Assembly: GCA_018061035.1 (NCBI GenBank)
Contig: JAGOUX010000001.1
Span: 76,249-140,248, forward strand
Direction of reading: 5' to 3'
DNA from: Minisyncoccota bacterium
Lineage (GTDB): Bacteria; Patescibacteriota; Minisyncoccia; Phycocordibacterales; UBA9973
Length of the DNA: 64,000 nucleotides
Under the pieces are notes generated by a model that was not told the origin of the DNA, ran no database searches, and saw nothing but the letters and a program-made list of their open reading frames with translations. The translations under genes and the position numbers were made by a program. Of the stretch, positions 45,886-63,625 are shown in pieces (position 1 is the stretch's first letter; every line of letters starts with the position of its first letter).

Positions 45886-48228
45886 CTAAAAAGGTATATC
45901 TTCCACATTAAGAAAAGACTTTTTTGGTAACTCCGGAGGCAGTTCATCAATTCCGTCTTGATCTTTTTCTACTACCGAACTTAAACCATGAAAAAGGTCA
46001 ACATCTTGCAGCGATGAAGCGATGGGAGCGATGTTTTCCTTAATCTTACGGATGGTTATCTTCCTATGTTGTCCACCTTCTCTTTCAACATAAATTCCTA
46101 CTTCTTCTAAGGTAGTTTTTAATGCCATGATATTACGACTAAAAACTTGAGGTGTATCTGGTATTTTTGTACGCCAGTCATCAATATATTTTAAACGTAA
46201 AATGGCAAGAAGTTCGGTAGCACTACCACTCCACTCTTCTTTATCAGCCATAAATTCCACAATGAAGGATGCTTCAAGGTTGTCATTAATAACTTCATCA
46301 CTCTGAAGATTTATATTCTGTGTATATGCACGCAAAAACTCTGCTCTGCTGTGACCCAATGCTTCAGCAATAGCACAACCCCATAATGTAAAATCAGCCA
46401 TGCGTGGAAGATTAGTCTCTTTTACTGTAGGGCGTATTTCCATAGCTTTAGATAACACAGTGAAGATAGAACCAAGCAATGACGGCAATTCAGCAGTGAA
46501 GTTATCTAGCATATCCTTCTCTTCCTTGCGCTTACCCTTTGGAATTCTCGCAAGGTCCACCAGGACACTACGCTCTAGTAGGTCTGGCTTGAGTGAAGGT
46601 AGATTAATGCCATTAAGTGATATACACCTCTTAAAGTTGTAGATAATATCGCTATCATCGCTGTATAGCTCCCGTTTAGAAAAGCCACTGCCTGTAACGG
46701 CTCTACACAATATGTCAGATAGTTCAGACGGTATTATGGTGATATTGTCGAAAACTAAAAACCAGTGGTGTGCTAATTGCTGTATCAATTCTTTCTGATC
46801 CTTCGGAAAATCACTACCATCAATCTTTGAGGGGTCAATTATCTTTTTGAGTATTTTAGATACAGTTGATTTTGCCGAACCTTGGGGACCATGAAAATAT
46901 ATCATTGGGTGTGGAAATCCAGGGATGAAACAACAAATTAACCATACTGCGAGCAATAATTTGTGGTCCTCGCGCTCAATGTTTATATAACTAAATAGAT
47001 TAAAAATATCACCACCTAACACAGGAGTCACTTGAGGTTGCTGATGGTTATACGTTCGAAAAAGAATAGGTGGATTCTTTTCTATGGTCCACCCAGTAGC
47101 AGATATTTTTACGCTTTGCCATTCACTATCGCTTAAAAAATAAAATATAGAATCACCTTTCTGGTTCACCCTATTTTCTAGTTCATATTGATTTCCTTCA
47201 TATGCCGCATGACCCTCAACTGTGTTTAGAGCAGTACTAATAGCATCATTGTTTGGCGTTTTAGAATACTTTTTCCAGTATTCTCTTCCAAGCCACATTT
47301 TTGTTTTCTTACTTCTGCACACATAGTATTCTTTATGATTATCAACAGGAAATTGTATGTATGGTTCATCTAGTTCACTACAAAAAAGTAGTATATCAGG
47401 GGATTCTAAAACTAGACTTACAATTTTATCGGCCTGACTTGTTGCTTTTTCCTTTCTCTCTTCTTCTTTATTTATATGATATTTTTTTATACTTTCCCAA
47501 ACCCCTCTTAATTCCTTTTCTGACATAGGCGGAATATTTTCACTATTCCAAACTTTAAAGTTTTTCCAGCCTACGCTTTCCCATAATTCCACAGGAGCAG
47601 AAAACAGCAACCTTCCTGCCATAGAAGCGGCAGTGTCATTTCTTAAGCCTTTGGGAGCGCCGTCTTTGAATGACAACCATTTTTTGTCGTTATTGCCTTG
47701 AGTCCTAATTTGAACAACCCATTCTGGCAGTTCAGAAAAATCAGAATCATCTGGCGAGATGAGCCACTCATACTCCCCTTTAGTACTTACGGACGGTGGT
47801 GCTACTACATAACCCCCATCCCCTCTTATATCTGTTAATTCTCGAACCCTTGTCCCATTTGAGACCTTCTCACTTGGGTGTTTGTAATAAAAATGCATAC
47901 CTCCCCCTCCAGTTTTAGCCGCCACTGTTGGCAGATACCCAGAACTATTGCCGTCTTTTTCAACATCTACAACAACGACCCCTGAAATCTTTCCAGTTAC
48001 GATAGCGATGCCTGCGTTTGGCCATACCGTCCACCAATTATTTATTTCTTCTTGTGTAGGAAATCTACTTTGAAATTCTGCCCAACTTATAAATGGTTTT
48101 TTATCAGCTTGAACAGGTATTATACTGAAACCTTTTCTAAGATAATGTAATGCCCAATCTAGATTTGTTTTTTTATTCTCTGGTGACATAAATATACAAA
48201 GCCGATGACATGTAACGCCTAGTAACAC
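45886..48228 (-). CDS. replicase: bifunctional DNA primase/polymerase (Prim-Pol) N-terminal domain fused to a P-loop SF3-like helicase/primase C-terminal domain
   Basis: Prim-Pol motifs VVVVDVEKDG and GGGMHFYYKH, then Walker A GPQGSAKST and Walker B LVFDNI. The listed start is GTG; an in-frame ATG lies 13 codons downstream (MSPENKK). Confidence 0.8.
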   Translation of the reverse strand: MLLGVTCHRLCIFMSPENKKTNLDWALHYLRKGFSIIPVQADKKPFISWAEFQSRFPTQEEINNWWTVWPNAGIAIVTGKISGVVVVDVEKDGNSSGYLPTVAAKTGGGGMHFYYKHPSEKVSNGTRVRELTDIRGDGGYVVAPPSVSTKGEYEWLISPDDSDFSELPEWVVQIRTQGNNDKKWLSFKDGAPKGLRNDTAASMAGRLLFSAPVELWESVGWKNFKVWNSENIPPMSEKELRGVWESIKKYHINKEEERKEKATSQADKIVSLVLESPDILLFCSELDEPYIQFPVDNHKEYYVCRSKKTKMWLGREYWKKYSKTPNNDAISTALNTVEGHAAYEGNQYELENRVNQKGDSIFYFLSDSEWQSVKISATGWTIEKNPPILFRTYNHQQPQVTPVLGGDIFNLFSYINIEREDHKLLLAVWLICCFIPGFPHPMIYFHGPQGSAKSTVSKILKKIIDPSKIDGSDFPKDQKELIQQLAHHWFLVFDNITIIPSELSDILCRAVTGSGFSKRELYSDDSDIIYNFKRCISLNGINLPSLKPDLLERSVLVDLARIPKGKRKEEKDMLDNFTAELPSLLGSIFTVLSKAMEIRPTVKETNLPRMADFTLWGCAIAEALGHSRAEFLRAYTQNINLQSDEVINDNLEASFIVEFMADKEEWSGSATELLAILRLKYIDDWRTKIPDTPQVFSRNIMALKTTLEEVGIYVEREGGQHRKITIRKIKENIAPIASSLQDVDLFHGLSSVVEKDQDGIDELPPELPKKSFLNVEDIPF

Positions 48229-49518: not shown

Positions 49519-52500
49519 TTACAGCTCCCAATATTTACTTGGATTCCTCTCCCGTAATATATTTATTATCTTTTTAGCATCTTTGTTGGTTTTTGATAGT
49601 TCTTTAATAGTAGATACTAAATGGTCCGACTCATGAAGTTCTATTCCTTTAGGAAAGGAGAAGAATATTTTTGCAGCCTGCATGAAGTTATCTTTGCCTA
49701 CTTTTTCGTACAATAATTCCATAATATTGGTATGATACAGAGAAGGATACCAATAAACTTCTGATCTATTCCCTTTTTTTAGTTCTTTTTCGTAAAATTT
49801 CTTTTCAATCTTTAAACATTTAACTAACAAGTTAAACCATTTACTACTATGCTTATCTACACTCCTGAATTTATGCTCAATAGTCTGGTAAATCAAATTG
49901 AAAATGTTATGTGCATAAACGTCTGAAAGTAAGTCAAAGTATTCAATCGTCAAATTAATACATTTATCTATGTTATCTTCAGGTGAAACTTCACGCATCG
50001 TGTGTTCAGCCATTGAAGCAAATCGAAAACAACTATCCGGATTTTCTTTTTGTAATTTTTTTATAGTTTTAATTAAAATCGCCTTGAATTTTCTTTGATC
50101 GTATTTTTCTGGGCCTAAATCGTCATACAACCCTGGGGCACTAAATCTCCATTTTTTATATGTATTTTTCCTAAACTCAGCATAATATAAGAACAAGGCC
50201 GCAGACTCTTCCGTAACGTCTATTGGTAATTTAGTGAGAGCATTAACTAATCGAAGGGCTTCTGTCTCATTAAGCGAGCGTATACGATCAAAAACATGCA
50301 ATACACTCTTTGTCATAGCTTTTTGGACATTTAAGGGCCACAGAATCAACCTATCTAATAAATCGAATGCTATGTTTTCAATATCTTTTGATATTTGTAG
50401 AGCTTTCTTTTTATCGTTATTAAGAAATAAGGTATCACGATCACTCGGTAAAACTGTTAGGCGCACAGAGGCAAGCTGAGCAAGAGCATAGGATCCCATA
50501 TGTATTGCATAATAGTTTTTATCTTGCACTAATCTTTCGGTCAGATTAATTATCTTTCCTAAAAATTCTCTCCCTTCTAGCACAGAGCAGTTCATTAAAA
50601 CCCATCCACACCAACCCCTGACAGATGTAATACTGTGAGGTTCTTTTCCTCCCTCTATTCTCTTATGTTCATTATGTTCGTTATTTTTTTCTTGAGGATC
50701 TTGGCCAGGCATGTATGGATCAGGATCTTCCATAAAAATTTCAACAACTCTTAATGCCTCTTTTATTTTTTTATATTTAGCTAGCCTGTCAGCAAATTGT
50801 AAAATCGCAGACCTATGGCCTCCGATAGGAAATCTAATATATATTTTCTCTATATTGTTATCTAACTCGTTCAAAGCAGGATTTACAATATTCTCATATA
50901 TTTGCATAGTTGTTTCTTCACTATCTTTTGTGTTTTCATTTATATTGAGAAGACCATGAGTGTAGATAGCTTGTTGGTCTGGGCTAAGTACTTTTTTGCT
51001 TTCAAGTAGTCTAAAAATATCCAAACCCTGTGAGAAATCTTTCAATAAAATGTCATGCAAAAGACGAGCAAGTTCAAAAGCACTAAAGTGATCGCTCTTT
51101 TCTGACTCTCGATATTCACTTGTTATAACTAACTTGAATAAATAGATAGCAAAATCAATATCATTTTCTAGGAAGTTTCTAATTGTCGAAGTAGTATCCA
51201 TATCTGACATGAAACGATTATAATACTTAGGATTTTTGAACCATTTTTTTAATTCTTCGCGAGCTTTCTCATGACCTTTTTTTGCTAACTCACTTACAAC
51301 TTTTTCTACAAATGGATTAACTGGCACATTATATTTTTCCGTAGTTAATCTGATTAAATTCCACTTCTTAGAATCTGAAATGGTCGAACCCATTGTTGCC
51401 TGATAAATTAAATCGGATTTATGAGGAATACCTTTTCTCGACATAACAAACTCCCTCAGTATCTTAAATGCTTCTCCTGATATTTTTAGGTCTTCACTAG
51501 AATAACGCTGAAAAACAATTTCATATACAGATCTATTTAAGAAATCTGGTCTGTTTTTTGAAACTTTACTGGTTTGGTTAATGCAATAACTTTTAATAAA
51601 CTTCCAGCCCTTAGTTTTATCTTTATTGTAATATTGTAAAATACATGGAGCGAGAATAAATCCAATAAAATGCCTGTCTTCGATGTGATAATTACTTCCC
51701 CAGAAAGCTGTACCCCCACCCATGTGCTCCCAACCCTTAAATTCAAGCTTCTTACCAATCTTTTTGTAGTAGCGATCAAACTGACCAATAATTACTTTCA
51801 ACAAAACAGGAAATCTATGAGGAAAATCTTCATTTAGCCATTCTTTTAGAATATCGTAGACTTCTTTTGGGGCGTAATGATTAAACTGGCCATCGTCACG
51901 TGTGATGTTGAAAGAAGAAGTAAGTAACTTAAATATTTTCTGTTTTAATTCAAAATCTCCTTGTTTAAATATTTGGCCAATAAGCTTACAAACTTCTGCC
52001 TTCTCCCATTCCAAGTGGCTGTCATTATTACTCTTTAAGTAGAAAAATTCATCTTTATTGTAGCTAATAAGATCTTGTGTGATATTAAAAGCAATATTTA
52101 AATAATTTTCCCCATCTTTATTTTCGATAATTTTCTTCAAAATTTTAATAACTGACGTACTAAAGAAATCTGAAGAACTATAATACCCCCTAATAGTTCT
52201 AGAATGACTTTTAATATAGCTAAGTGCGTATTCTTTATTTTTTATCGTTGTTAAATTATTTTCAAAAACATTAAAAATACCAAAGGAAAATGGGTGCACC
52301 TTGTTTAACTTCCACAAACTACTCCATTTCCTCAAATCTAAGTCCTGACGATTCTTTAGACGGTCCATAGCAAATGACATAAGATCCCATCTGGCCGAAA
52401 AGGCAGACAGAGAACCAGTACCCCATTTAATACCCTTATGTCCATTTATATTTTTTTCTAAAAGAAAAAATTGTTTCTTCTTTTTATTTTGATTATTGAA

Positions 52501-53127
52501 ATAATCGCTTCTTTCCTCAACTCTAGTCCTTAAAGCAATTACATCTTGATTAAAATCAACACGAGAGTAAGTGGAGCCTGTAGTTGATTTTTTGAAAATG
52601 TTATTTTTAAAAATACTGTCAGTAAATTCCTTTACATCTTCTTCAGGAAGCCAAAATTTAATAGCATCAGCAACTAAAGAATAATTTAATTCCTCGTCAA
52701 TTTTTTCTGATAGTTTCCAAAATTTAACTTTAGATAAAAGTTCAATACATTCATCACTATAACCTTTTCTCTTAAAAAAACTTTTAATATCTTCAAAATA
52801 TTTAATATTTTTAACTTTAGATTCTAAATCAGTACTAAGCTTTTTGCAAACTATCAAGATTTCATCCTGAACTCCAATTGATTTTTTCTTTTCTATGTTC
52901 TCTAAAATTTCTTTAAGTTGAGCATAGTCTAAATTAACTCCTTTATATTTTGATTCACAGACTATTTTTTTATCTTCTGCAAAAACAAGATCGAAATCCT
53001 CAGATTTACTTGATTCTAAATGAATATATGAAAATCTATGATCACGCAAAAACTGCAAGAATAAAGACATAGCTGCCCAATTCTGTACGTATATTCCTAT
53101 TTGTGTATTTTGTCCGGCTTTAGTCAT
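49519..53127 (-). CDS. 1202-aa protein: N-terminal PD-(D/E)xK-like nuclease domain plus a long alpha-helical repeat region, no NTPase motifs
   Basis: The N-terminus has a G-I-Y-V-Q...EDFDLVF...CESK signature that aligns with the N-terminus of the upstream 268-aa protein. I found no Walker A. It is translationally coupled, lying 4 nt after the upstream gene. Confidence 0.75.
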   Translation of the reverse strand: MTKAGQNTQIGIYVQNWAAMSLFLQFLRDHRFSYIHLESSKSEDFDLVFAEDKKIVCESKYKGVNLDYAQLKEILENIEKKKSIGVQDEILIVCKKLSTDLESKVKNIKYFEDIKSFFKRKGYSDECIELLSKVKFWKLSEKIDEELNYSLVADAIKFWLPEEDVKEFTDSIFKNNIFKKSTTGSTYSRVDFNQDVIALRTRVEERSDYFNNQNKKKKQFFLLEKNINGHKGIKWGTGSLSAFSARWDLMSFAMDRLKNRQDLDLRKWSSLWKLNKVHPFSFGIFNVFENNLTTIKNKEYALSYIKSHSRTIRGYYSSSDFFSTSVIKILKKIIENKDGENYLNIAFNITQDLISYNKDEFFYLKSNNDSHLEWEKAEVCKLIGQIFKQGDFELKQKIFKLLTSSFNITRDDGQFNHYAPKEVYDILKEWLNEDFPHRFPVLLKVIIGQFDRYYKKIGKKLEFKGWEHMGGGTAFWGSNYHIEDRHFIGFILAPCILQYYNKDKTKGWKFIKSYCINQTSKVSKNRPDFLNRSVYEIVFQRYSSEDLKISGEAFKILREFVMSRKGIPHKSDLIYQATMGSTISDSKKWNLIRLTTEKYNVPVNPFVEKVVSELAKKGHEKAREELKKWFKNPKYYNRFMSDMDTTSTIRNFLENDIDFAIYLFKLVITSEYRESEKSDHFSAFELARLLHDILLKDFSQGLDIFRLLESKKVLSPDQQAIYTHGLLNINENTKDSEETTMQIYENIVNPALNELDNNIEKIYIRFPIGGHRSAILQFADRLAKYKKIKEALRVVEIFMEDPDPYMPGQDPQEKNNEHNEHKRIEGGKEPHSITSVRGWCGWVLMNCSVLEGREFLGKIINLTERLVQDKNYYAIHMGSYALAQLASVRLTVLPSDRDTLFLNNDKKKALQISKDIENIAFDLLDRLILWPLNVQKAMTKSVLHVFDRIRSLNETEALRLVNALTKLPIDVTEESAALFLYYAEFRKNTYKKWRFSAPGLYDDLGPEKYDQRKFKAILIKTIKKLQKENPDSCFRFASMAEHTMREVSPEDNIDKCINLTIEYFDLLSDVYAHNIFNLIYQTIEHKFRSVDKHSSKWFNLLVKCLKIEKKFYEKELKKGNRSEVYWYPSLYHTNIMELLYEKVGKDNFMQAAKIFFSFPKGIELHESDHLVSTIKELSKTNKDAKKIINILRERNPSKYWEL

Positions 53128-53131
53128 ATAT

Positions 53132-53938
53132 TTATGATTTTATGGCTTCTCCTTCTTTATTCTTATCTTTTTTAATCTTAATTGGATTCGCCCTCATTCT
53201 ATCATCAATAATTTTATTGATAACATCCAAAGGTAACCTTACCTCAGTTGAGTGAAGACCTTCTTTAAGTAAATTTGATCCACGAAAACTTACAAGAAAA
53301 TCATTTATGAGATCTTTAATATTCCCCACAGAATAGATTCTTTCCAAGGAGTTCCCTTTACAGGAAATTTTATCTATCTCATCCCTGAGTCTGGCTATAA
53401 AACTTCTTACCGCCTCAGTATGTATGTCAGAACCTGGCCCTAGTGCCTTTTTAAGTATCTCAGTCGCCGCCAAAAGAACTAGTCCGTCAATTTGTCTGTG
53501 GTCATAAGCTAAATAATCAATTTCAATCCGATTTTTATCTATTCCTTTTAATGATGCTTCTATAAATCTTTTAGTTGCAGTGCTATATTTAATACCCCTA
53601 TCGTCTCCTCTAATATTTAAAAATAAATAGGCAAGAGATTTTGAAGGGTTTTTTGTAAAGATAAATTTAAAAGAGCTGTCCTTTTTGCTTGATTGTGTCG
53701 CCTTGCTAAAATAATACAATAGAATATTATTAGTTTCCTTGGCAGTTAAGCCCACTAAGCTTGATTTAACTTGATACCCAGCAAAGCTCGACTTACTCCA
53801 AATTTCAAAGTCCATTTTATCCTGCTCACAAAATACTTGTTCAAATTCTGCGTTATTACCTAAATTTTCTAAGGCAAAATAAACAGAACATAAATCTTGA
53901 TACCTGAAACCAGTTTTTGCTGATGGTCCTCCGCTCAT
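53132..53938 (-). CDS. 268-aa protein with an N-terminal PD-(D/E)xK-like (DUF4297/Cap4-nuclease-like) domain
   Basis: GFRYQDLCSVYFAL ... MDFEIW ... YQVK, i.e. D...(Q/E)xK spacing. It is paralogous to the N-terminus of the 1202-aa protein. Confidence 0.7.
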   Translation of the reverse strand: MSGGPSAKTGFRYQDLCSVYFALENLGNNAEFEQVFCEQDKMDFEIWSKSSFAGYQVKSSLVGLTAKETNNILLYYFSKATQSSKKDSSFKFIFTKNPSKSLAYLFLNIRGDDRGIKYSTATKRFIEASLKGIDKNRIEIDYLAYDHRQIDGLVLLAATEILKKALGPGSDIHTEAVRSFIARLRDEIDKISCKGNSLERIYSVGNIKDLINDFLVSFRGSNLLKEGLHSTEVRLPLDVINKIIDDRMRANPIKIKKDKNKEGEAIKS

Positions 53939-53999: not shown

Positions 54000-54063
54000 T
54001 GGATATCCGCTCCATGCACATGACAGGTACTTTTCTGGTTTATAGTACGTGTAGGATCAGATC

Positions 54064-54462
54064 TTAGTGATAATTTATATATTGACCATACAGAGAATCC
54101 GCAATCATTTCCTTTAAAGTATCGAATTTCCGCACCCCTTCCTCTAAACTCTTAATCTTTTGCCAAACCTCATTCTCTGCCCCAACATTTATATCTAACT
54201 TATTTATATCATCCTCAAAAACAACATAAATCGTATAAGCATTTACTGCATCGTGCCAAGCATTACCTTTCACACTCGTCCGCAAAATGTCTACGAAAGG
54301 AAGTATCTCTGCTTCTGGCACAACAACCAAAAACTTATCCTTCTCATCTACCTCAAACGCTATGCCTTTTATCTTTGAAACTTCAGCTTTAAGTGAATCA
54401 AAGTCCTTAGACCAGACTCGTTTAATGTAACATACGAAAGAGTTATTGATTATATTTTCCAT
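54064..54462 (-). CDS. hypothetical protein
   Basis: 132 aa. It is the last gene of the ABC-F operon, 13 nt after the DUF1905 gene. Confidence 0.45.
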   Translation of the reverse strand: MENIINNSFVCYIKRVWSKDFDSLKAEVSKIKGIAFEVDEKDKFLVVVPEAEILPFVDILRTSVKGNAWHDAVNAYTIYVVFEDDINKLDINVGAENEVWQKIKSLEEGVRKFDTLKEMIADSLYGQYINYH

Positions 54463-54475
54463 ATATTCCAGTATA

Positions 54476-54790
54476 CTAAACTAAGATCTTTATACTAAAC
54501 TTAATTAAATCACCTTTATAAACACCTTCCTTTTTGCGAATAGTAGCTTTAAGCGGAACAAGATAACTGTCCGTTCGAGAATCAAGGAATATTGAAGTTT
54601 GCCAGATGCTTTTACCAATAGTCACTGACACAGGCAGCGAACGCCAGCCGCGAGACAGTGCACCGAAGTCTTTTTTAATCTGGGTAGTTTCTTTTTGTGG
54701 AATACTTACGAAATGCCAAGGAGCATTAGTGTCATAACCCCAAAGCCAGACTTCACCATTTAATTTTAAGTTATTGTTCTTCTTTGGCAT
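54476..54790 (-). CDS. DUF1905 domain protein
   Basis: W.WGYD...WHFVSIP.E.T..IKK......GWRSLPVSVTIGKSIWQTSIF......YLVPLKATIRKKEGVYKGD matches the DUF1905 consensus as I recall it. Confidence 0.6.
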   Translation of the reverse strand: MPKKNNNLKLNGEVWLWGYDTNAPWHFVSIPQKETTQIKKDFGALSRGWRSLPVSVTIGKSIWQTSIFLDSRTDSYLVPLKATIRKKEGVYKGDLIKFSIKILV

Positions 54791-54794
54791 AACT

Positions 54795-55202
54795 CTATTT
54801 ATTTCTTAAATATTCTTCTATTAAAACAACATCTTGTGCAGTTTTTGGTTTTTTGTCTCCTTCTTTAAGCCATTGTTTTTTAACGATAAGTAGAAACTCA
54901 AGTGAGTTATATCGTACCCCGTCTATAACAGTAGTCTTATCAAGTACTTGTTCAAGATTGAAAGATTCGCCGAGTGGTTTCCAGTTTGGACCTATTTCAA
55001 AAACTCCGTCAGTAAGCACGTCTTCTTTTTCGCCTCTTTTAAAGCGAAGATTTTTAGACAATTCTGTAAACTTTTTTTCCGTAACAACAACGTCAATATC
55101 AGCACTTTTACGAATGCCTAGGACTTCTAAAATACCCGAACCAATGACGATAGAATTATCGGTATCAAGTCCAATTTCTTTTAATTTATCTTTAAGATTC
55201 AT
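54795..55202 (-). CDS. minimal nucleotidyltransferase (Lnu/LinA-like or MNT-like fold)
   Basis: IVIGSGILEVLGIRKSADIDVVV matches the hG[GS]-x9-DhD NTase motif. It resembles the LnuA segment WLDGGWGVDVLTGKQQREHRDIDID. Confidence 0.5.
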   Translation of the reverse strand: MNLKDKLKEIGLDTDNSIVIGSGILEVLGIRKSADIDVVVTEKKFTELSKNLRFKRGEKEDVLTDGVFEIGPNWKPLGESFNLEQVLDKTTVIDGVRYNSLEFLLIVKKQWLKEGDKKPKTAQDVVLIEEYLRNK

Positions 55203-55266
55203 GTTTTGTAGTATACCAGCTTATAATACTTTTTTCCTAGATAGCACTTGAAATACTTTGGGCTTT

Positions 55267-56628
55267 TTAAAAGTCATTAAGACGTTCTTTTAGCCAGCCA
55301 TTTTCAGGGTAAATAAATTTATCTACCTCAATTTTACTAGTAAAGTATCTATCGTGCGAGACTACAAGAATCGCACCTTGGTATTCCATAAGTGCGTTTT
55401 CAATTACCTCCCTCGACTGTATATCTAAGTGATTTGTCGGTTCATCCAAAACCAATAGCTCGTGCTTCTGATTTGTCAGTTTTGCAAATATAAGACGAAC
55501 TCGTTCACCATGACTAAGTGATGATACTTTTTTAAACACAGCTTGATCCGAAAAAAGAAAAGCTCCGAGAACTTGTCGTGGATCTTTTGAAGTTATTAAA
55601 CTAGAAGTACTCAAGAATTCTTCCAGTACGGTCTTGTTAACATCGAGCTGTTCGTGCTCTTGTGCAAAATATCCAATAGACACATTAGTCCCGATTTTTA
55701 TTTCACCGCTATCTGGTTTTAAATCACCTGTGATTATTTTAAGTAATGTAGTTTTACCTGAACCATTATTTCCCGACAACAGTATTTTCTCTTTTCCTCT
55801 AATCTCAAAAGAAACATTCTTAAGTACAGGTTTTTGGTTAAAACTTTTTACAAGGTTATCACATCGCAAAACAAGTTTTGTATTTGCTACTTCGCCAAGA
55901 ATATTCACTCCTTTGATTTTCTTAAAGCTTTCTGGTTTTTTAATCTCCTTGTTGTGAATTTCTCTTTCTAGATATTTTTCTTTGGCACGAATCATCTTTC
56001 CCTTGCTAGCACTAGAGTAAATTGAGGCTTCCTGTTTTTTGAGAACTAGCCAATTTTCGAGTCGTTTCTTTTCTCTCTGTTGTAATCTATATGAGTTTTC
56101 TTGTCTTTCAGTACTTCTCTTTTTCTCAGTTATGTAATTGGTATATCCACCCAGATATTCATTAAAAGAATTGTTGACGGGATCAATTTCCAATATTTTG
56201 TTTACAGTATTATCAAGCAACCGCCTGTCATGGGAAATGACCAGCACACAGCCCCTAAAGTTCTTTATGACGTCCTCAAGCCACAGAATTGCGTCTAGAT
56301 CCAAGTGATTGGTCGGCTCATCTAAAAGAAGCACTGTTGGTTTTTCTTTCAAGATGGTTTCTAAAGCTAGACGAGTTTTCTGCCCACCACTTAACTTTGA
56401 GTCATTAAATACTATTTGCTGAGGAAGATAACCTATGCGTTCATTCTCTATTTTGATTAAGCCATTATCGATTTCGACTTCACCGACGATTGCTTTAAGT
56501 AAAGTAGATTTACCTGCACCATTTGGTCCTACTAGCCCGATACGATCACCTCTATGCAACACAAAAGAAACCTTTTCAAAAAGATTCTCACCTGCAATAC
56601 TTACGCTTACGTTTTTTATGATTATCAT
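55267..56628 (-). CDS. ABC-F family ATPase (two tandem NBDs, no TMD), compact at 453 aa
   Basis: NBD1 has GPNGAGKST, LSGGQK, LLLDEPTNHLD and SHDR. An inter-domain linker of about 75 aa follows. NBD2 has GNNGSGKTT, LSHGER, LVLDEPTNHLD and SHDR. Confidence 0.8.
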   Translation of the reverse strand: MIIIKNVSVSIAGENLFEKVSFVLHRGDRIGLVGPNGAGKSTLLKAIVGEVEIDNGLIKIENERIGYLPQQIVFNDSKLSGGQKTRLALETILKEKPTVLLLDEPTNHLDLDAILWLEDVIKNFRGCVLVISHDRRLLDNTVNKILEIDPVNNSFNEYLGGYTNYITEKKRSTERQENSYRLQQREKKRLENWLVLKKQEASIYSSASKGKMIRAKEKYLEREIHNKEIKKPESFKKIKGVNILGEVANTKLVLRCDNLVKSFNQKPVLKNVSFEIRGKEKILLSGNNGSGKTTLLKIITGDLKPDSGEIKIGTNVSIGYFAQEHEQLDVNKTVLEEFLSTSSLITSKDPRQVLGAFLFSDQAVFKKVSSLSHGERVRLIFAKLTNQKHELLVLDEPTNHLDIQSREVIENALMEYQGAILVVSHDRYFTSKIEVDKFIYPENGWLKERLNDF

Positions 56629-56629
56629 G

Positions 56630-56690
56630 TTTAGTAGAAAAAAGACCCAATAGAAATTCTGTTGGGTCTTTTTTCTTTATATATTTAGTA
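56630..56690. terminator. bidirectional terminator hairpin (AGACCCAA-N12-TTGGGTCT flanked by A/T runs)
   Basis: Read directly from the sequence. It lies between the HIT operon end and the ABC-F start. Confidence 0.5.
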
Positions 56691-56844
56691 ATTAATTAGT
56701 GTTTAAAAAGAAAAGTTCCCGCGTCGAAAAAGCCCACGGATGTGAAGCCCTCAAAGTTTTTGAACAAGAATAATTCTTTTCGTTTCATGTGTTGTAATAA
56801 TAACATATCAGAAAACATATACAACTTCAACTTTCCAAACAATT

Positions 56845-57204
56845 CTATAAACCCTGCTTAATCCACATATCTAAACCATCATTTGGAAAACGAGGCACAA
56901 CATGAAAATGTAAGTGATTTACAGATTGTTGAGCGTCTTTGCCAGAAGCATTAAGTATGTTTACACCAGTTGCTCCGGTTTCATTAAGTAAGTGGCAACT
57001 TAATTCTTTAGTCACAGAAATAACCTCTCTTAAAACTGAATCATCCACATCAAAAATGTTTTCAAAGTGATTCCTTGGTATTACGAGAGTATGGCCTTTT
57101 GATACTTGATCGAGAGGAAGGATTGCTAAAACTAAGTCATTTTCAAATGTAATTTGAGCTGGAGCTTCTTTTTTTATTATGTTACAAAAAATACAATTGC
57201 TCAT
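56845..57204 (-). CDS. HIT (histidine triad) family protein
   Basis: HLHFHVVPR histidine-triad motif. 119 aa. Confidence 0.8.
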   Translation of the reverse strand: MSNCIFCNIIKKEAPAQITFENDLVLAILPLDQVSKGHTLVIPRNHFENIFDVDDSVLREVISVTKELSCHLLNETGATGVNILNASGKDAQQSVNHLHFHVVPRFPNDGLDMWIKQGL

Positions 57205-57208
57205 GGAT

Positions 57209-58108
57209 TTATTTTAAAATTCTACTAATCTTCTCAATTGAATGTACTACAAAATCAACATTCTGCCAATCCTCCTTGTTATCAAAAGCCCACTTAATAC
57301 TATCTACCAATCGAAGCATCACTAAAGTTTCAACGTCGTGCGCTATGGCAGTATATTCCTCAGAAGTAATTCCATACCCTTGCATAAATGCCTCCTCGTA
57401 TTCTTTTTTCCATTCCCAAGTAAAGACGTCGGATAATTCTAAGTGTGGAGCTCGGTGTGCCATAGCGGTCCCCCAATCAATAACATAGATAGTTCCATCA
57501 GGGTGAACAATTGTGTTTTTCGGTGCTAAATTGCTATGACATAAAACCGGATTAAAATTCCACGACTTAAGCTCCGTGAGCCTTGTCTTGAGTCTTTCAA
57601 TTTGAGATGAAGATAGTATATTTTCTTTCTGAAAAAAGTCATCGTCAAATAAGTAATTTAGGGACCAATCCATCGTTCCGATCCAGTCGTTACCGAAATC
57701 ATTCTGCTCTGGAAATTTGAGATCACTGCCATATCCTTTTACCTGAATTTGATTAATAATATTTGCGTATTTGCCTAACGTAAACCAAATTCTGCTGTGT
57801 TCCTCTTTTAGCTCGGATCCATCTATCCCTTCAAGGTATGTTTGAAAAGAATATGCATAGCTTTCATAGACACCCAACGCAACACATTGTGCGGTTGGAA
57901 CTCCCACCGCAGCTGCTTTTTCCATACACCATTTTTCTTTTACATATGTTTTTAAGTTCGTGTTTTTACTCAAACGCAGTATATATATTAAGTCCTCGAA
58001 AGTCACTTTAAAAACTAGATTTGCATGACCTTTATCAACAATTGGAAAGATATCGACTGGTGTTTTATGAAAAACATTTTTACAAATTTGTGTGACTGAT
58101 TCGTTCAT
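57209..58108 (-). CDS. aminoglycoside/choline-kinase-like phosphotransferase fold protein (atypical catalytic loop)
   Basis: APH/ChoK-like layout with IDWG (DFG-equivalent). The catalytic-loop position reads HSNLAPKN where HGDxxxxN is expected. Confidence 0.55.
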   Translation of the reverse strand: MNESVTQICKNVFHKTPVDIFPIVDKGHANLVFKVTFEDLIYILRLSKNTNLKTYVKEKWCMEKAAAVGVPTAQCVALGVYESYAYSFQTYLEGIDGSELKEEHSRIWFTLGKYANIINQIQVKGYGSDLKFPEQNDFGNDWIGTMDWSLNYLFDDDFFQKENILSSSQIERLKTRLTELKSWNFNPVLCHSNLAPKNTIVHPDGTIYVIDWGTAMAHRAPHLELSDVFTWEWKKEYEEAFMQGYGITSEEYTAIAHDVETLVMLRLVDSIKWAFDNKEDWQNVDFVVHSIEKISRILK

Positions 58109-58141
58109 AATAGTTATTGTTTAAGCTTAAATACATAAAAA

Positions 58142-58768
58142 TCATAGGAAAACTTCTTCTCCATCCCCAATAAAACGGTATGTGCCATCTTCTACTAGAA
58201 TCCCTTGCCCATCTTTCAATATTCGTAATGGGTATTTTAAAGTCTTCGCCCTTTCTTTAATCTCTGCCTCAGCTTTGTCCTTATAGTGAGCCTTAAGAAT
58301 AAATGGCACATAGTTAAGAGCAGTAAAATCAGTTATACCGAACCTGTCTACTGTCTCATCATTCCAATCCGACACTTCGATTGTTGGACACATCAAGTAT
58401 GCCCCTGCACTTACTCCAATATACACTATGCCTTCCTCCAGTAATTCTTTTACCACTTCACCAAAACCAGTTTCTCGTACTATTTTAAGTAAATAAAAGG
58501 TATTACCTCCTTCTACATATACTATGTTTTTATCACTAAAAAAGTTTTTCAACTCTTCCTTATTTTTTCCTTCAATATCTATATCTTCTAAAAAGTAGCC
58601 ATCTTCTCTTAAAGTTTTTTTGACGTTTTCAAAAAAATCTTGATGAGTTCGAACCCTTTTCGTCGCAGTAATAACGTAACCAATTTTTATTTGGTCTTTA
58701 GGAATACCCGCTAGGTCAAAACCGTATTTCAATAAAAAACTTAAATCTGATGCGAGGATTAATTTCAT
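58142..58768 (-). CDS. peptidase S51 (dipeptidase E/cyanophycinase-like) family protein
   Basis: VEGGNTFYLL and GVSAGA nucleophile-elbow motifs. 208 aa. Confidence 0.6.
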   Translation of the reverse strand: MKLILASDLSFLLKYGFDLAGIPKDQIKIGYVITATKRVRTHQDFFENVKKTLREDGYFLEDIDIEGKNKEELKNFFSDKNIVYVEGGNTFYLLKIVRETGFGEVVKELLEEGIVYIGVSAGAYLMCPTIEVSDWNDETVDRFGITDFTALNYVPFILKAHYKDKAEAEIKERAKTLKYPLRILKDGQGILVEDGTYRFIGDGEEVFL

Positions 58769-58772
58769 AAAT

Positions 58773-59318
58773 TTATTTAAATTTTTCTAACTCTTCAGCC
58801 CATTTTTTATAATTCTCTCGTGCAAGTCCTTTACGTTCTTCTGAACTTATCCTATCAAACATCCAATCAAGCTTTGCTTTTACTTTAGTGTATCCCTCAA
58901 CTAGGACTTTCTTATTTACAAACATTTCAACATTTGTTTCAAAGAAGCTTACAGAATCTGCATCCATAAGTGCATTCTGTTCAGAGTCACCACCAACTTC
59001 GTGCTTGGACACTAAGTAATGAACCTTTTCAACTATATCCTTAGAAGCATTATTTTCTTGTAAAAATTCAGAAATAATCTTTGATCCTTTTTCTTGGTGG
59101 TACTGCAAGAACTTTTCATCCAAATAATCATCTGGAACTATAGTTTCTTCGTCTCGAAAGGCTCTTTCAATGTCATGGGCATACGCAGCTATCTTGTGAG
59201 CTTCTGTCACATTCGGCTCAAACTTTCCAATCCAAAATACTGTGCGTTCAAAATGAGGTTTTTGTTTTCCTTGAAATGCTTGGTTTACATATTCGATTGT
59301 TTTTTTGTATAAATTCAT
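58773..59318 (-). CDS. HD-domain-like hydrolase, hypothetical
   Basis: H...AYAHDIER (an HD motif). 181 aa. Confidence 0.4.
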   Translation of the reverse strand: MNLYKKTIEYVNQAFQGKQKPHFERTVFWIGKFEPNVTEAHKIAAYAHDIERAFRDEETIVPDDYLDEKFLQYHQEKGSKIISEFLQENNASKDIVEKVHYLVSKHEVGGDSEQNALMDADSVSFFETNVEMFVNKKVLVEGYTKVKAKLDWMFDRISSEERKGLARENYKKWAEELEKFK

Positions 59319-59322
59319 AGAG

Positions 59323-59901
59323 CTATTTTAATTCAAAACTGTTTAATAATTTTTTACACGTACCATGCTTCCCTAAATGGAAAAGTCCAACAGATATGGG
59401 TTTGAAAGTAATAGGAAATTCTAATTGCGTATCTGTTACCCCTTTACCAAGTGTTATATGTGGATGATAATTTTCGTACGCACTGTTTATCTTAAAATTA
59501 TTGACCCAATCAATGATAGAGCTTGATTCTGACAGTTCAAAGAAATTTTCTTTGGTTACAACACCTGCACTGTGCTTGGTAATCAAGTCAAAAACAGCAT
59601 TATGTAGAGTCTGAAGTTCCTCACTGACATAAAGGTTAAAATGACAGTATTTACCGGAACCTAAAGAAGTTAATGTAACTTCAGGCATATTGGACTTTTC
59701 AAGTAGCGAGCCTAATTCACTTTTAAAGCTATCAATACTTTCAACAAGCAGACTTCCCATACCTAAAGTGATGTGAGGATAGTAGCCGTTTTCAAAAGAG
59801 ACATAGTCCTCTATCTCTAAACTTCTATTTAATTCTTTACAGATATTGCTTATGTTTTCAGGAAGTAACAATACAATATCGATGGCTATTTTTTCTTGCA
59901 T
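59323..59901 (-). CDS. 2H phosphoesterase superfamily protein (LigT-like)
   Basis: Two H-x-T-x motifs (YPHITLG, HPHITLG) with the spacing characteristic of 2',3'-cyclic phosphodiesterase/LigT. Confidence 0.7.
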   Translation of the reverse strand: MQEKIAIDIVLLLPENISNICKELNRSLEIEDYVSFENGYYPHITLGMGSLLVESIDSFKSELGSLLEKSNMPEVTLTSLGSGKYCHFNLYVSEELQTLHNAVFDLITKHSAGVVTKENFFELSESSSIIDWVNNFKINSAYENYHPHITLGKGVTDTQLEFPITFKPISVGLFHLGKHGTCKKLLNSFELK

Positions 59902-59903
59902 AA

Positions 59904-60287
59904 TTAATTCATTGCTGGCTTATAAACCTCAATCTGATTGCCGTCAGGATCAGACAAGAAGAAATACTGTCCTCCGCTCGCACCTACTCTAAATTGTCCG
60001 CAATTAATTCCTTTTTCTATGAAACTATTTCGGAGAGCTTCTGGATCATTATGAGTAAAAGCAATATGTCGTATACCAGTGAAAGACAGTTCTTCTTTAG
60101 CTCCTTCATTTAAAACATCAAACTGCCAAAGTTCAATAATTATATTCTCTCCTTCAAGCATTACTCCTGTTCCACCCATGTCGTCCCTACGGAATCTAAC
60201 TTTTTCTTTAAAACCAAAATACTCCTCGTAAAAAGGTATCGATACTGTTAAATCCTTTATTGTGATTGCGACGTGGTGGAGTTTCAT
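59904..60287 (-). CDS. VOC (glyoxalase/bleomycin-resistance) family protein
   Basis: MKLHHVAITIKDL...FY..FGF N-terminal beta-alpha-beta-beta-beta module. 127 aa. Confidence 0.7.
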   Translation of the reverse strand: MKLHHVAITIKDLTVSIPFYEEYFGFKEKVRFRRDDMGGTGVMLEGENIIIELWQFDVLNEGAKEELSFTGIRHIAFTHNDPEALRNSFIEKGINCGQFRVGASGGQYFFLSDPDGNQIEVYKPAMN

Positions 60288-60805
60288 AAATTTTTCATTA
60301 CTTCCTCTAACAAAACTTTATTCTCTTGGCACCATACTGACTTTTCAAATTCATTAAACGGAAGCCAGACTCTACCGTGAGCGTCTTCGTTGCCATTGAA
60401 TTCTTCTTCGCTTTCAACATCGCATAAATAATAAAGCATATAACCCGTTGGGTATGGGTAACGTGACGGATTCTCGGGTTTCGTCACATGCGTAGTTATT
60501 TTTATATATCCCACCAATTTAGGATTTTTAACATGGACACCTGTTTCTTCATACGTTTCCCTGACTGCAGTTACTTCTGGATTCTCACCTTCATCTATGT
60601 GTCCACCTGGAATATCCAGCCTTCTTTCTGGACGTTCTCCTTCTCTCAGTTCTGTCTGTAAAAATTTATTGTCTTTGAAGACGAAAGTATAAGAAGCAGT
60701 ACAAAGTGCTAATTCTGGAAGTTCATCAGATAAATAAACTTCCACAGTATTGTTATGTCCATCGATCCAGTATAAATTTTTTACTGTATGTATTAGTTTT
60801 TTCAT
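60284..60805 (-). CDS. NUDIX hydrolase
   Basis: Nudix box GGHIDEGENPEVTAVRETYEETGV. Confidence 0.7.
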   Translation of the reverse strand: MKKLIHTVKNLYWIDGHNNTVEVYLSDELPELALCTASYTFVFKDNKFLQTELREGERPERRLDIPGGHIDEGENPEVTAVRETYEETGVHVKNPKLVGYIKITTHVTKPENPSRYPYPTGYMLYYLCDVESEEEFNGNEDAHGRVWLPFNEFEKSVWCQENKVLLEEVMKNL

Positions 60806-60809
60806 GATT

Positions 60810-61712
60810 TTACATTAACGCAGTTACTTCTTCTAGGCTCGGCATAGACGGCCCAGCTCCTGCTTTTGTCACAGAAAGAGATGCAGCGATATTGGCAAAC
60901 TTCAGACTCTCAGAAAAGGACTTATCTTGAGCTAGAGCTGCTGCGACAGCTCCAACAAAGCAATCTCCTGCACCTGTAGTATCTACCGCTTTTACTTTTC
61001 TGCCTTCAATTGTGATTATTTCGCCATTCTCAAAAGCTACAACTCCTTTCTCTCCAAGAGTTACAACGATCTTTATCTTATTGTTTTCTATTTTTGCCAC
61101 TGCCTCTAAGAGAGATTCTTCCTTGTCAGTATCTATAGTCATTCCTGATAGGAAACTTAATTCCGTTTCGTTAAGAATCAAAACATCTATCAAGTTGAAA
61201 AGGTCGTCAGGGATAACTTTTGCAGGAGCAGGATTGAAGACATTGATTGTTCCAACTTCTCTGCCTTCTTTAAAGAATGCGATAATCGTTTCTGTTGGAA
61301 TCTCAAATTGAGAAACAAGAACATCGCCTTCTTTAATCGTTACATTTTCAATATCTTTTCTCTTTAGTTCAAAATTTGCTCCAGGAACAACCACAATTGT
61401 ATTATCTGCAGTTTCTTCAGCGATAGTGATAAGAGCTATGCCAGTGGATGTTTCTTCTTTAGAAACTTGAGTATTGATATTCTGTTCTTTCAAGAAATTA
61501 GTGAGCTTTTCGCCAAAAGCATCGTTGCCCACTTTACCCAGCAAAACAGTTGTTGCTCCAAGCTTTGCAGCTGCTACGGCTTGATTTGCTCCTTTACCAC
61601 CTGGAAAATATTTAAGATCGGTGCCAAAAACTGTCTCGCCCGCATCAGGATGGCGTTTAGTGGTGACAACAATATCCATATTTATGCTTCCCGCAACGAT
61701 TACTCTACTCAT
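60810..61712 (-). CDS. ribokinase (PfkB family)
   Basis: GGKGANQAVAAAKLG and the DTTGAGDCFVGA anion-hole motif. 300 aa. Confidence 0.8.
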   Translation of the reverse strand: MSRVIVAGSINMDIVVTTKRHPDAGETVFGTDLKYFPGGKGANQAVAAAKLGATTVLLGKVGNDAFGEKLTNFLKEQNINTQVSKEETSTGIALITIAEETADNTIVVVPGANFELKRKDIENVTIKEGDVLVSQFEIPTETIIAFFKEGREVGTINVFNPAPAKVIPDDLFNLIDVLILNETELSFLSGMTIDTDKEESLLEAVAKIENNKIKIVVTLGEKGVVAFENGEIITIEGRKVKAVDTTGAGDCFVGAVAAALAQDKSFSESLKFANIAASLSVTKAGAGPSMPSLEEVTALM

Positions 61713-62344
61713 AAAGGAAAAGTTTCAGTATTAATACTTTCAGCCACCGCCAATCTGATAAACTGCTCTCTGGTCTCAAGAATCTTTTCATAATGCATTG
61801 GGATAACATTACCCACCTTTTTAAATTGTTTTACGAAATCCAAAGCTTCTTGCGGACCAAAGGTGTAGAAAGTTCCAACGGGGATAAGGGCAATATCTAC
61901 TTCTAATTTTGATACGTCAATTCCTGAGGAATAAAACATGTCTCCAGCAAAATAAACTTTCTTTCCATCAACTTCTATAAGAAAACCGAAGTTCTCCTTC
62001 AAGGGCGAAGATACGTTAGGTCCATGATCAACGTTAAATATCTGTACTTTTATATCTCCAATATTTATTATTTCTCCGTCTTTGATTTGGACTACTTCAA
62101 AGGGCAAAGTTTCTTCTCCAAGAGTTTCTATACATTCCGCATTGAGATAAAGTTTTTTCGGTGAAAGTTTTTTAATTTGGTCCAGTGAGAAATGATCTCC
62201 GTGAATATGAGAAACAAGCATTGCATCACAAGCAACCCCATCTAATTTTTCCATAGGAGTTTTGTTTGCAATATCTAGAGCCAATCGAAAACCATTCTCT
62301 GTTTCAAAAATAAATCCAGATTGTTCAAATTTTGTGAGTTTCAT
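61709..62344 (-). CDS. MBL-fold metallo-hydrolase
   Basis: HIHGDH (HxHxDH) motif. 211 aa. Confidence 0.7.
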   Translation of the reverse strand: MKLTKFEQSGFIFETENGFRLALDIANKTPMEKLDGVACDAMLVSHIHGDHFSLDQIKKLSPKKLYLNAECIETLGEETLPFEVVQIKDGEIINIGDIKVQIFNVDHGPNVSSPLKENFGFLIEVDGKKVYFAGDMFYSSGIDVSKLEVDIALIPVGTFYTFGPQEALDFVKQFKKVGNVIPMHYEKILETREQFIRLAVAESINTETFPL

Positions 62345-62406
62345 ATATTTTTATTATACACAAAAGTAATCAGGGTTCAAAAGGCTTGAGACCTGTAAAC
62401 TCATAC

Positions 62407-63087
62407 TTAAATGTTCTCTCTAACCAAATAAATCAAATCATTCTCAACTACTTTCTTAATCACAAAATCAAATCTGTGAAAATCTAAACATAAATCAATG
62501 TCAGATTGTGGCACGCCAGCTTCATTTAACAAGAAGGCAGCTACAGAAGTTGTTGCTAATTTTTCCTTAATATCTAATTCATTAACTTCTTTACCTTCCA
62601 AAACATCTCGTATGTAGTAAGCAAGTAGGATATCTTCATTATCAGCTTCGGGATGTGGAGCGGTTGATACAAGGGATATGTTTTGAATATTATTCTTTTT
62701 TATGTATTTAATAATGCTATCTGCAACTACAAAACTTCCTGTTAAAACCACTTCCGCATTAATAGCATTGATTAAACCCTTTGTGCCGTTCATAGTACTA
62801 TGAACGATTGTTTTTCCGCGGAAGTCGACATCCAATACTTCTGTAGGGCCATTTCCGAAATCAAAACCTTCAGGTTTTACCCCTTTCCTTTCACCTACCA
62901 AAACATACTCCGGATTTTCTTTCTTTAATTTATGAGCTTCTTCCAAATCCAATACTGGAATGATCTTTTCTGCACCATTTGCAAATATATATGCTTCAGT
63001 GGTGAAAGCTCTATACACGTCAATAATGACAGCTAGACCTATGGCTTTGTGAGCATCTTCTAAGGATCTGATAATTTGGATTTGCAT
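62407..63087 (-). CDS. 2-phosphosulfolactate phosphatase (ComB) family protein
   Basis: The N-terminal AVIIDVYRAFTTEAYIFANGA resembles the ComB family VIDVLRA[ST]T pattern. 226 aa. Confidence 0.5.
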   Translation of the reverse strand: MQIQIIRSLEDAHKAIGLAVIIDVYRAFTTEAYIFANGAEKIIPVLDLEEAHKLKKENPEYVLVGERKGVKPEGFDFGNGPTEVLDVDFRGKTIVHSTMNGTKGLINAINAEVVLTGSFVVADSIIKYIKKNNIQNISLVSTAPHPEADNEDILLAYYIRDVLEGKEVNELDIKEKLATTSVAAFLLNEAGVPQSDIDLCLDFHRFDFVIKKVVENDLIYLVRENI

Positions 63088-63094
63088 ATATTAA

Positions 63095-63625
63095 TTACGC
63101 CAAATGACTAAAGAAAGTTCTGATAATAAAATGGAAAGGATCACCAAAAGATGTGGGACTTTCCTTTAACTTACTTTTTAATTCTTCCTCAGTTAAATAT
63201 TCCCAACTATCAGCTTCATGATTGAGTACTGGTTTGAGGTTAGAATGTATTTTATATACTGCAAAGAGATGATTCTCTTGTCTCCCGAGAACATGACGAT
63301 TAAATACTTTCTTTCCTACAAGTTCGTACTTAAAATCTCCAGTTAATCCAATTTCTTCTTCGGATTCTCGTTTCAGGGCATCGACTTCGGTTTCTCCTGA
63401 AGAAACGTGACCACCCACAGGGGAAACATATTGTCCTGCGTCTTGTCTGTCATTAGATTGCTTAACGAGCAGCCATCGCCCTTCTGAATCAATCACTTCG
63501 CTGATAACGGTCGTGTGTAGCAGTCCTTGTTGATGAGCTTCGGACTTAGTGACCACTTTGAGAATACTTCCTTCTTCATCAATAACATCAACCAATTCTT
63601 CTTGTGCGGTGTTAGAGGTTTCCAT
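63095..63625 (-). CDS. NUDIX hydrolase
   Basis: Nudix box GGHVSSGETEVDALKRESEEEIGL. Confidence 0.7.
   Translation of the reverse strand: METSNTAQEELVDVIDEEGSILKVVTKSEAHQQGLLHTTVISEVIDSEGRWLLVKQSNDRQDAGQYVSPVGGHVSSGETEVDALKRESEEEIGLTGDFKYELVGKKVFNRHVLGRQENHLFAVYKIHSNLKPVLNHEADSWEYLTEEELKSKLKESPTSFGDPFHFIIRTFFSHLA

Follow-up and report, generated by a model that had tools for sequence, protein, structure and literature searches.

A candidate leader-peptide attenuator upstream of a conserved ABC-F ATPase gene in the candidate phyla radiation

Genes encoding antibiotic resistance ABC-F proteins (ARE-ABCF) are typically controlled by premature transcription termination, which is relieved when a ribosome stalls on an upstream open reading frame (uORF); the cplR leader has 212 nt, with termination at the start codon, and PLSA-type genes (for pleuromutilins, lincosamides and streptogramin A) carry uORFs of 3-4 codons, encoding MIN, MRI and MAGN (bioRxiv 10.1101/2022.12.05.519065). 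Here, we analyzed a 64,000-nt stretch of the genome of a Minisyncoccota bacterium (contig JAGOUX010000001.1, positions 76,249 to 140,248; hereafter the window, whose coordinates are used throughout), a member of the candidate phyla radiation (CPR, or Patescibacteria), and found a previously unannotated leader of this layout in the 216-nt gap upstream of an ABC-F ATPase gene (453 aa; 55267..56628, minus strand). The gene is the first of four read on the minus strand, and is followed by genes encoding a 135-aa nucleotidyltransferase (NTase; this one is named NT135), a DUF1905 domain protein and a 132-aa hypothetical protein. The locus probably holds a chromosomal, stall-inducible ABC-F translation factor that is conserved across the CPR and has its own leader, rather than a mobile resistance cassette, with neighbours that are functionally unlinked to it.

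When compared with the ARE-ABCF attenuators of vmlR (B. subtilis), cplR (C. difficile), lmo0919/vgaL (L. monocytogenes), vga(A) and msrD, the CPR leader, known from sequence alone, shows the same order of a promoter (here a candidate), a short uORF overlapped by an alternative pairing, and an intrinsic terminator ending at the ABC-F start codon, all within about 210 nt (216 here, 212 in cplR). It differs from them in its uORF, which has 30 codons with about 20 conserved N-terminal residues instead of the 3-4 codons of PLSA-type genes, in its CPR host, and in the gene that it precedes, which is widely conserved across the CPR and not accessory.

Leader elements and their conservation

The leader lies on the minus strand. 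An extended -10-like element, TGTTATTAT (56797..56805), can be read 8 nt upstream of the uORF ATG, and TGnTAtaAT-like elements are found 7-13 nt upstream of the uORF ATG in homologous loci. A consensus scan did not flag TGTTATTAT, and we treat it as the candidate promoter of the leader/ABC-F transcript; the uORF may be leaderless. The uORF itself (56696..56788) comprises 30 codons and a stop codon, and encodes MKRKELFLFKNFEGFTSVGFFDAGTFLFKH. After a spacer of about 20 nt follows a 19-bp intrinsic-terminator hairpin (56636..56676), which has a GC core (GACCC/GGGUC) extended by an A-tract/U-tract, carries the run UUUUUUCU and ends 8 nt before the ABC-F ATG. The whole leader folds with a z of -5.15, and -22.5 kcal/mol of its fold comes from the hairpin. 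A candidate antiterminator strand (56707..56726; leader nt 63-82) falls within uORF codons 22-28 and offers an alternative partner to the 5′ arm of the terminator. No Rfam family reached its gathering score in the leader, and at permissive E-values all matches were sub-threshold, Thr_leader (25 bits vs a gathering score of 55) among them. A home-made terminator detector missed CPR hairpins, in which the U-run pairs with the upstream A-tract, and its control figure of 5/65 was discarded.

Nine distinct CPR ABC-F loci were surveyed, and uORF, terminator and antiterminator were found together in six of them (ABC-F identity 59-73%). The layout precedes the ABC-F gene in L002, L005/L006, L011, L003/L004 and L184/L185, and the uORF is 93 nt long in L002, L005, L011 and L003, as in the window, and 111 nt in L184. 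In wider scans of genome and metagenome contigs, almost all of the ABC-Fs among the matches listed were non-CPR proteins of 30-43% identity.

The two parts of the uORF are conserved in different ways. Codons 2-21 are conserved at the peptide level with abundant synonymous change (between L003 and L184, 1 codon is identical, 10 are synonymous and 9 non-synonymous). In codons 22-30, conservation is at the nucleotide level, with zero synonymous changes within the close group, and it is these codons that overlap the strand pairing with the terminator 5′ arm in nascent-transcript folds. This alternative partner falls at leader nt ~53-82 in all six loci, and at nt 63-82 in most conditions. An equivalent hairpin is present in 6/6 leaders and carries compensatory changes, stem position -2 being GC, TA, CG or AT. 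The 14-nt leader motif TTTTTCGASNNGGG has a single occurrence in the window, where 0.02 would be expected, and is confined to leader-bearing loci among the 195 loci fetched; a scan of viral contigs for this leader motif returned no matches. At the level of sequence and predicted structure, the leader thus has the parts needed for ARE-type expression, in which stalling on a uORF relieves premature termination.

The genes upstream of the leader vary from locus to locus. The neighbour is dnaK in L003 and a divergent gene in L011, and the genes called nearest to the leader in L184 are a 34-aa open reading frame (ORF), at a distance of about 600 nt, and a Peptidase_M50 gene in divergent orientation. 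Since the hairpin also stands behind a divergent (L011) or different (L184) upstream gene, it is not simply the terminator of the gene before it. In L184, the sequence immediately before the ABC-F leader (~2690-2790) contains a tRNA-like 3′ end, GGTTCAATTCCCGGCAGCCCGACC.

The ABC-F protein and its family

The ABC-F assignment is based on Pfam and NCBIfam models, a family alignment, motif spacing and a neighbour-joining (NJ) tree. Pfam finds two ABC_tran domains, and the linker matches ABC_tran_Xtn at residues 153-233 with 25.0 bits, just under the cut-off of 25.9. Each of the two nucleotide-binding domains (NBDs) has a Walker A motif (at residues 34 and 286), a signature (LSGGQ at 79, LSHGE at 371) and the Walker B/catalytic glutamate motif LDEPTNHLD. 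The two ATP sites are thus canonical, and the sequence leaves no space for a transmembrane domain. An annotation made earlier from the sequence of the window (the first-pass annotation) had described a two-NBD, ribosome-type ABC-F without a transmembrane domain, and this description holds: the protein is a soluble ABC-F with both ATPase sites intact and the features of the class.

Two features make the protein compact, namely the lack of a C-terminal extension and the deletion of about 34 aa from the helical subdomain of NBD1, between the Q-loop and the signature motif. Walker A and signature of NBD1 are 45 aa apart here; the distance is 79 aa in other CPR members, 43 aa in Vga(A) and 124 aa in EttA. 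In the alignment of the CPR ABC-F family, the deletion appears in several sub-lineages with differing boundaries, and given its nested position within the CPR clade, it is convergent with that of Vga(A). Some of the CPR ABC-Fs with the deletion have a degenerate first signature (SSGQ, LSPGQ or FSPGQ, not LSGGQ), a sequence pattern which suggests that constraint may be relaxed at one ATP site. Over one alignment span, the linker has 113 residues here, 99-102 in EttA, Uup, YbiT and YheS, 103 in OptrA, 109 in PoxtA and 131-135 in VgaA, LsaE, MsrA and MsrE.

In NCBI, the ABC-F is labelled as a protein of a Candidatus Pacebacteria metagenome-assembled genome, and its best 120 homologues have 48-78% identity to it and come from CPR members wherever they are named. 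In relatives, the gene is found in core contexts: as grpE-dnaK-ABCF-dnaJ, beside rpsL/rpsG, near a murein ligase and polA, or near rplI/rpmA. Such a CPR-wide family in core-gene contexts does not fit the proposal of the first-pass annotation that the gene is cargo of a mobile element.

None of the named ARE models in NCBIfam/AMRFinder was reached at cut-off, their scores of 197-323 bits staying below the required 680-1450 (Vga 323/725, Sal 307/725, Msr 283/680, OptrA 275/1450, CplR 273/780, the producer type TlrC/CarA/OleB/SrmB 269/800, Lsa 197/750). Thus the idea that this is a resistance ABC-F like Vga, Lsa or Msr is not supported by the models that define these proteins, nor by those of Sal, OptrA and CplR. 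The EttA, Uup, YbiT and YheS models were likewise not reached (252-311 bits vs 599-936); the two EttA models gave 304-305 bits against 599 and 807, and the NBD1 arm insertion of EttA is absent. The one model passed is NF000355 ("ribosomal protection-like"), with 422 bits against a cut-off of 380, and 19 of 20 CPR relatives match it at E <= 1e-113 with scores near the cut-off. When this model was calibrated, E. coli EttA (380.2), Uup (416), YbiT (431) and YheS (432 bits) all reached the cut-off too, and true AREs scored 495-558 bits. Since housekeeping ABC-Fs of E. coli pass at the same cut-off, the model name carries no functional information, and we rejected the pass as evidence of an ARE-like protein.

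Best identities among plasmid-borne ABC-Fs were 38% for OptrA and PoxtA, 36% for EttA, 31% for Msr(E) and 27% for Lsa(E). In the NJ tree, 22 CPR sequences form one clade that stands outside the Vga/Msr/Lsa clade (80% support). After midpoint rooting, the bootstrap labels at the CPR node are unreliable, so that the values used are the support of the Vga/Msr/Lsa clade and the low values of the backbone. The first-pass annotation had allowed that the protein might instead cluster with housekeeping EttA or YbiT orthologues present in all relatives; it is indeed widely conserved across the CPR, yet it clusters with neither EttA nor YbiT.

PoxtA and OptrA are among the closest characterised sequences, PoxtA being the best match in the PDB (E = 3.9e-77, identity ~38%), and their linkers (109 and 103) are near the 113 residues found here. 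They differ in keeping the full helical/arm region of NBD1 (about 125 aa from Walker A to signature vs 45) and in being borne on plasmids or insertion sequences, and a specific grouping with the CPR ABC-F is not supported by the tree. The E. coli proteins EttA, Uup, YbiT and YheS (32-35% identity) resemble the CPR protein in being chromosomal and vertically inherited, in their twin canonical ATPase sites and in their NF000355 scores (380-432 bits vs 422). They differ in retaining the NBD1 arm/helical subdomain that is absent here and in linkers about 10-14 aa shorter, and the literature searched describes no such attenuator leaders for their genes.

Downstream genes and surroundings of the locus

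As the first-pass annotation had stated, the four genes are co-directional with gaps of 64, 4 and 13 nt; its term "cargo operon" is an interpretation, not an observation. An independent run, SRR11088468, yielded an identical 5.5-kb Logan contig (5551 bp) spanning window positions 54022-59572, hence this stretch is no assembly artefact. That contig (L001) ends at 54022, 42 nt past the fourth gene and within the 125-nt gap before a defence-like gene pair, which is consistent with a junction that varies between strains. No terminator-like structure was found in the 64-nt gap 3′ of the ABC-F gene; in this strain, its transcript therefore probably runs on through the three small genes. A weak hairpin downstream of the fourth gene was unconvincing and was rejected as a terminator.

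NT135 (54795..55202, minus strand) is a minimal Pol-beta-superfamily nucleotidyltransferase with a GSG-x11-DxD motif, a third carboxylate (E69) and a C-terminal helical pair. The nucleotidyltransferase motif noted in the first-pass annotation is present, with the spacing GSG-x11-DID and not x9, and its residues S22, G23, D35 and D37 are invariant in 40 homologues. A total of 77 homologues were found (74-179 aa, most 127-149), the named ones all from metagenome-assembled genomes of CPR members, and none of the 77 has a precomputed Pfam domain. NT135 itself has nothing above threshold in Pfam, with sub-threshold matches to DUF7277 and other uncharacterised nucleotidyltransferase families.

The AlphaFold model of NT135 (predicted local distance difference test, pLDDT, 94.4) has the same three-dimensional fold as Lnu(A)/Lnu(C). 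The likeness to LnuA that had been proposed from the sequence is confined to this modelled Lnu/ANT-type fold: NCBIfam gave no Lnu match at E <= 1, the PDB gave no sequence match, and hhalign against an Lnu(A/C) profile returned a probability of 3.5% over 31 C-terminal columns only. A tblastn search of 72,556 plasmids found no match to NT135 at E <= 1; 124 records in that set hold an Lnu(A)-like match. In comparison with TM1012, Lnu(A), ANT(2'')-Ia, JHP933 and MenT, NT135 is shorter (135 vs 156-195 aa), with 12-19% identity and no significant hidden Markov model or profile match; its nearest neighbour, TM1012, is itself uncharacterised. NT135 is a new small family in the TM1012/LnuA/ANT(2'')/MenT fold group. 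Because LnuA and ANT(2''), both small-molecule O-nucleotidyltransferases, are two of its four closest structural neighbours, our leading guess, held with low confidence, is that its substrate may be a small molecule.

The DUF1905 domain protein (104 aa; 54476..54790, minus strand) matches Pfam PF08922 with 73.8 bits against a cut-off of 24 (E = 1.2e-20), which bears out its naming in the first-pass annotation. It has no sequence match in the PDB and belongs to an uncharacterised family. The 132-aa hypothetical protein (54064..54462, minus strand) belongs to a very rare family: it has no Pfam match, a word-indexed search returned only itself, and an exhaustive HMMER scan of 1.84 billion representatives gave 7 relatives. 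In two of the seven, P0203 and P0204, the 132-aa domain is fused N-terminally to another domain, once to a MazF/PemK toxin (264 aa) and once to an NTP_transf_2 + AadA_C nucleotidyltransferase (AadA-type, 362 aa). The sequences of these two proteins hint that the domain may be a partner or regulator of toxin-like effectors. Its single-sequence AlphaFold model was poor (pLDDT 65) and a fold search gave no match. Both NT135 and the 132-aa domain represent uncharacterised families that may merit biochemical follow-up.

The four-gene arrangement was found in 0/9 distinct ABC-F loci and 0/3 NTase loci. When all window proteins were searched by tblastn against these loci, no NTase, DUF1905 or 132-aa homologue lay beside any ABC-F gene; the search matched only the ABC-F, NTase homologues, one MBL gene and, weakly, the 1202-aa protein described below (in L010). 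Downstream of the ABC-F, each of the closest relatives (69-78% identity) has different genes, and in three other CPR genomes the NT135 homologue lies alone among unrelated genes. The three downstream genes are probably lineage-variable additions in a variable stretch between the ABC-F gene and an integrated serine-recombinase/PrimPol element, and not functional partners of the ABC-F. In L002, L005/L006 and L011, serine recombinases or a pair of HNH and AAA_15/21 ATPase genes lie 0-3 kb past the ABC-F gene, and insertions of mobile or defence genes may recur in its 3′ flank.

To the left of the locus are the housekeeping genes lepA, murJ, leuS and ychF. The integrative element (43314-~54020, minus strand) adjoins ychF and carries a large serine recombinase (43314-44969; phrog_95 integrase, E = 5.5e-88) and a PrimPol with PriCT-1 (45886-48228), together with a small HTH/excisionase-like ORF in the 44969-45380 gap and two hypothetical genes. 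A search for att-type direct repeats around the element gave only chance k-mers, so its right boundary is not fixed. A full-length LOOT RNA (RF03000; 48982-49100, plus strand; 78.4 bits vs a gathering score of 46.4) lies in an intergenic region of the element, between the genes for a 214-aa and a 1202-aa protein, on the strand opposite to all its neighbours. This motif is found mainly in metagenomes, and we know of no function assigned to it. Two proteins are encoded in the stretch 49519-53938 (minus strand), one of 268 aa that matches the N-termini of the Cap4 dsDNA endonuclease, HamA and LmuA over its first 60 residues, followed by the 1202-aa protein, which has no family match; the pair is a candidate two-gene defence system. 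The gene beside the ABC-F in L010 weakly resembles the 1202-aa protein (24% over 250 aa).

To the right, twelve small enzyme genes follow one another uninterrupted on the minus strand (56845-63986): HIT, APH-family kinase, peptidase S51, DUF4202, 2′-5′ RNA ligase-like (LigT-like), glyoxalase, NUDIX, PfkB kinase, MBL-fold, ComB phosphatase, NUDIX and HAD. Such an arrangement is typical of CPR genomes. The similarity of the APH-family kinase to APH(9)/APH(3') is weak (E ~1e-4), and a gene 64% identical to the MBL-fold gene of the window lies near the ABC-F in L002.

Alternative readings and a proposed mechanism

The first-pass annotation had suggested that ABC-F and NTase form an acquired, element-borne lincosamide/streptogramin-A resistance cassette. 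A real pair of this kind, lsa(E)-lnu(B), with a gap of 53 nt, is known from an E. faecium plasmid, and shares with the present locus an ABC-F gene followed at short distance on the same strand by a nucleotidyltransferase gene. An ARE-style attenuator, an NBD1 spacing close to that of Vga(A) and an integrative element about 100 nt downstream of the fourth gene would also suit such a cassette. However, the ABC-F is conserved across the CPR in core contexts with at most 38% identity to any plasmid ABC-F, it scores far below the cut-offs of the Vga, Lsa, Msr, Sal, OptrA and CplR models, and its 422 bits with NF000355 fall in the housekeeping range and not in that of true AREs. Its clade stands outside that of Vga/Msr/Lsa, and the NBD1 deletion, nested within the CPR, is convergent with that of Vga(A). 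Neither protein belongs to the Lsa or Lnu family, and the pairing is absent in all relatives, being confined to one genome. The lsa(E)-lnu(B) cassette is a superficial look-alike of this locus, and we regard the cassette reading as largely refuted and highly improbable.

It has also to be considered that the genes for NT135, the DUF1905 protein and the 132-aa protein are a module apart from the ABC-F, either toxin-antitoxin-like or defensive, in which a MenT/AbiEii-like NTase would act on tRNA or other RNA and the 132-aa protein, perhaps with the DUF1905 protein, would neutralise or sense. The fusions of the 132-aa domain to a MazF/PemK toxin and an AadA-type nucleotidyltransferase point this way, as do the gaps of 4 and 13 nt, which suggest translational coupling, and the bordering integrative element and defence-like pair with its Cap4/HamA/LmuA-like nuclease protein. 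Yet the fusions number only two, and the fused nucleotidyltransferase is of a different family (hhalign probability 0.6%). Homologues of NT135 stand alone in three other CPR genomes, where no partner recurs, a state that would not be tolerated for a toxin, and no conserved cognate antitoxin gene lies beside the NTase; nor was a HEPN partner found in the adjacent genes, as would be expected for the MNT-type antitoxin once proposed as an alternative. PADLOC gave no match for the three proteins, no relatives (of NT135 among them) were found in IMG/VR viral contigs, and an effector-first gene order is atypical for MenAT and AbiE systems. Such a module is thus unlikely. We think still less of a leader without any regulatory role, in which the hairpin would be the terminator of the HIT-APH string, the uORF a chance frame and the ABC-F a constitutive housekeeping protein. 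The upstream genes are all co-directional, so a terminator after them is expected; by our own estimate, a 30-codon open frame has a chance of about 10% in AT-rich DNA; and the leader is absent from three CPR loci. Against this, the same uORF and hairpin recur behind unrelated upstream genes (L003, L011, L184), synonymous substitutions predominate in codons 2-21 between distant loci, and the 8 nt between the end of the hairpin and the ATG are too few for a separate promoter.

Several observations weigh against the stall-inducible ABC-F with its own leader. Three of the nine loci are without the leader, namely L010, which holds the closest homologue (78% identity), L186 and L189. For the window, the antiterminator duplex appears in the minimum-free-energy structure only if the 5′ portion of the uORF is masked, as though covered by a ribosome, and it is no better than shuffles, 15% of which reach it. 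The consensus scan assigned the hairpin to the plus strand, and the U-run lies partly within the extended stem. The NJ backbone support for the CPR clade among EttA, Uup, YbiT, YheS, OptrA and PoxtA is 12-23%.

The conservation of the uORF, the covariation in the hairpin, the alternative pairing, the distribution of the ABC-F across its family and its lack of conserved neighbours were all computed; on these grounds, the ABC-F and its leader are most likely an autonomous conserved unit encoding a stall-inducible ribosome factor. We infer the promoter, the direction in which the switch works, the signal for stalling (an antibiotic or an intrinsic arrest) and an action of the ABC-F on the ribosome. 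Under this proposal, the transcript would begin just upstream of the 30-codon leader ORF. Ribosomes reaching the leader stop codon would cover the antiterminator strand in codons 22-28, so that the hairpin and U-tract form, the transcript ends 8 nt before the ABC-F start and the gene is off. A ribosome stalled on the conserved N-terminal part of the leader (..L-F-K/R-N-F-x-G..) would leave the antiterminator strand free to pair with the terminator 5′ arm, which would allow read-through, unmask the start region and let the ABC-F be made. The ABC-F would then bind the E site of stalled ribosomes, where its inter-domain linker would act on the P-site tRNA and the peptidyl-transferase centre, like other ABC-F proteins.

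More tentatively, the leader peptide, with its core L-F-K/R-N-F-x-G, might itself act as an arrest peptide, either intrinsic or dependent on a drug, and the very ABC-F that it controls would relieve the stall, an idea that we hold to be possible though unlikely. If true, it would be a homeostatic loop matching the level of the CPR ABC-F, possibly the sole ABC-F of the cell, to translational stress, which could include ribosome-targeting antibiotics of the hosts and neighbours of these episymbionts. It would also be the first cis-regulatory stall sensor described in the CPR, and a new class of arrest peptide tied to ABC-F function.

A name such as "ribosomal protection-like ABC-F", given by the Prokaryotic Genome Annotation Pipeline (PGAP), or the position of an ABC-F gene beside an NTase gene, is no evidence of a resistance cassette. 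The CPR are uncultivated bacteria with reduced genomes and unusual ribosomes, in which gene regulation is little known, and a probable leader-peptide attenuator offers a concrete, testable case of ribosome-mediated regulation among them. It suggests that CPR cells sense and answer translation arrest, possibly including that caused by antibiotics in their surroundings.

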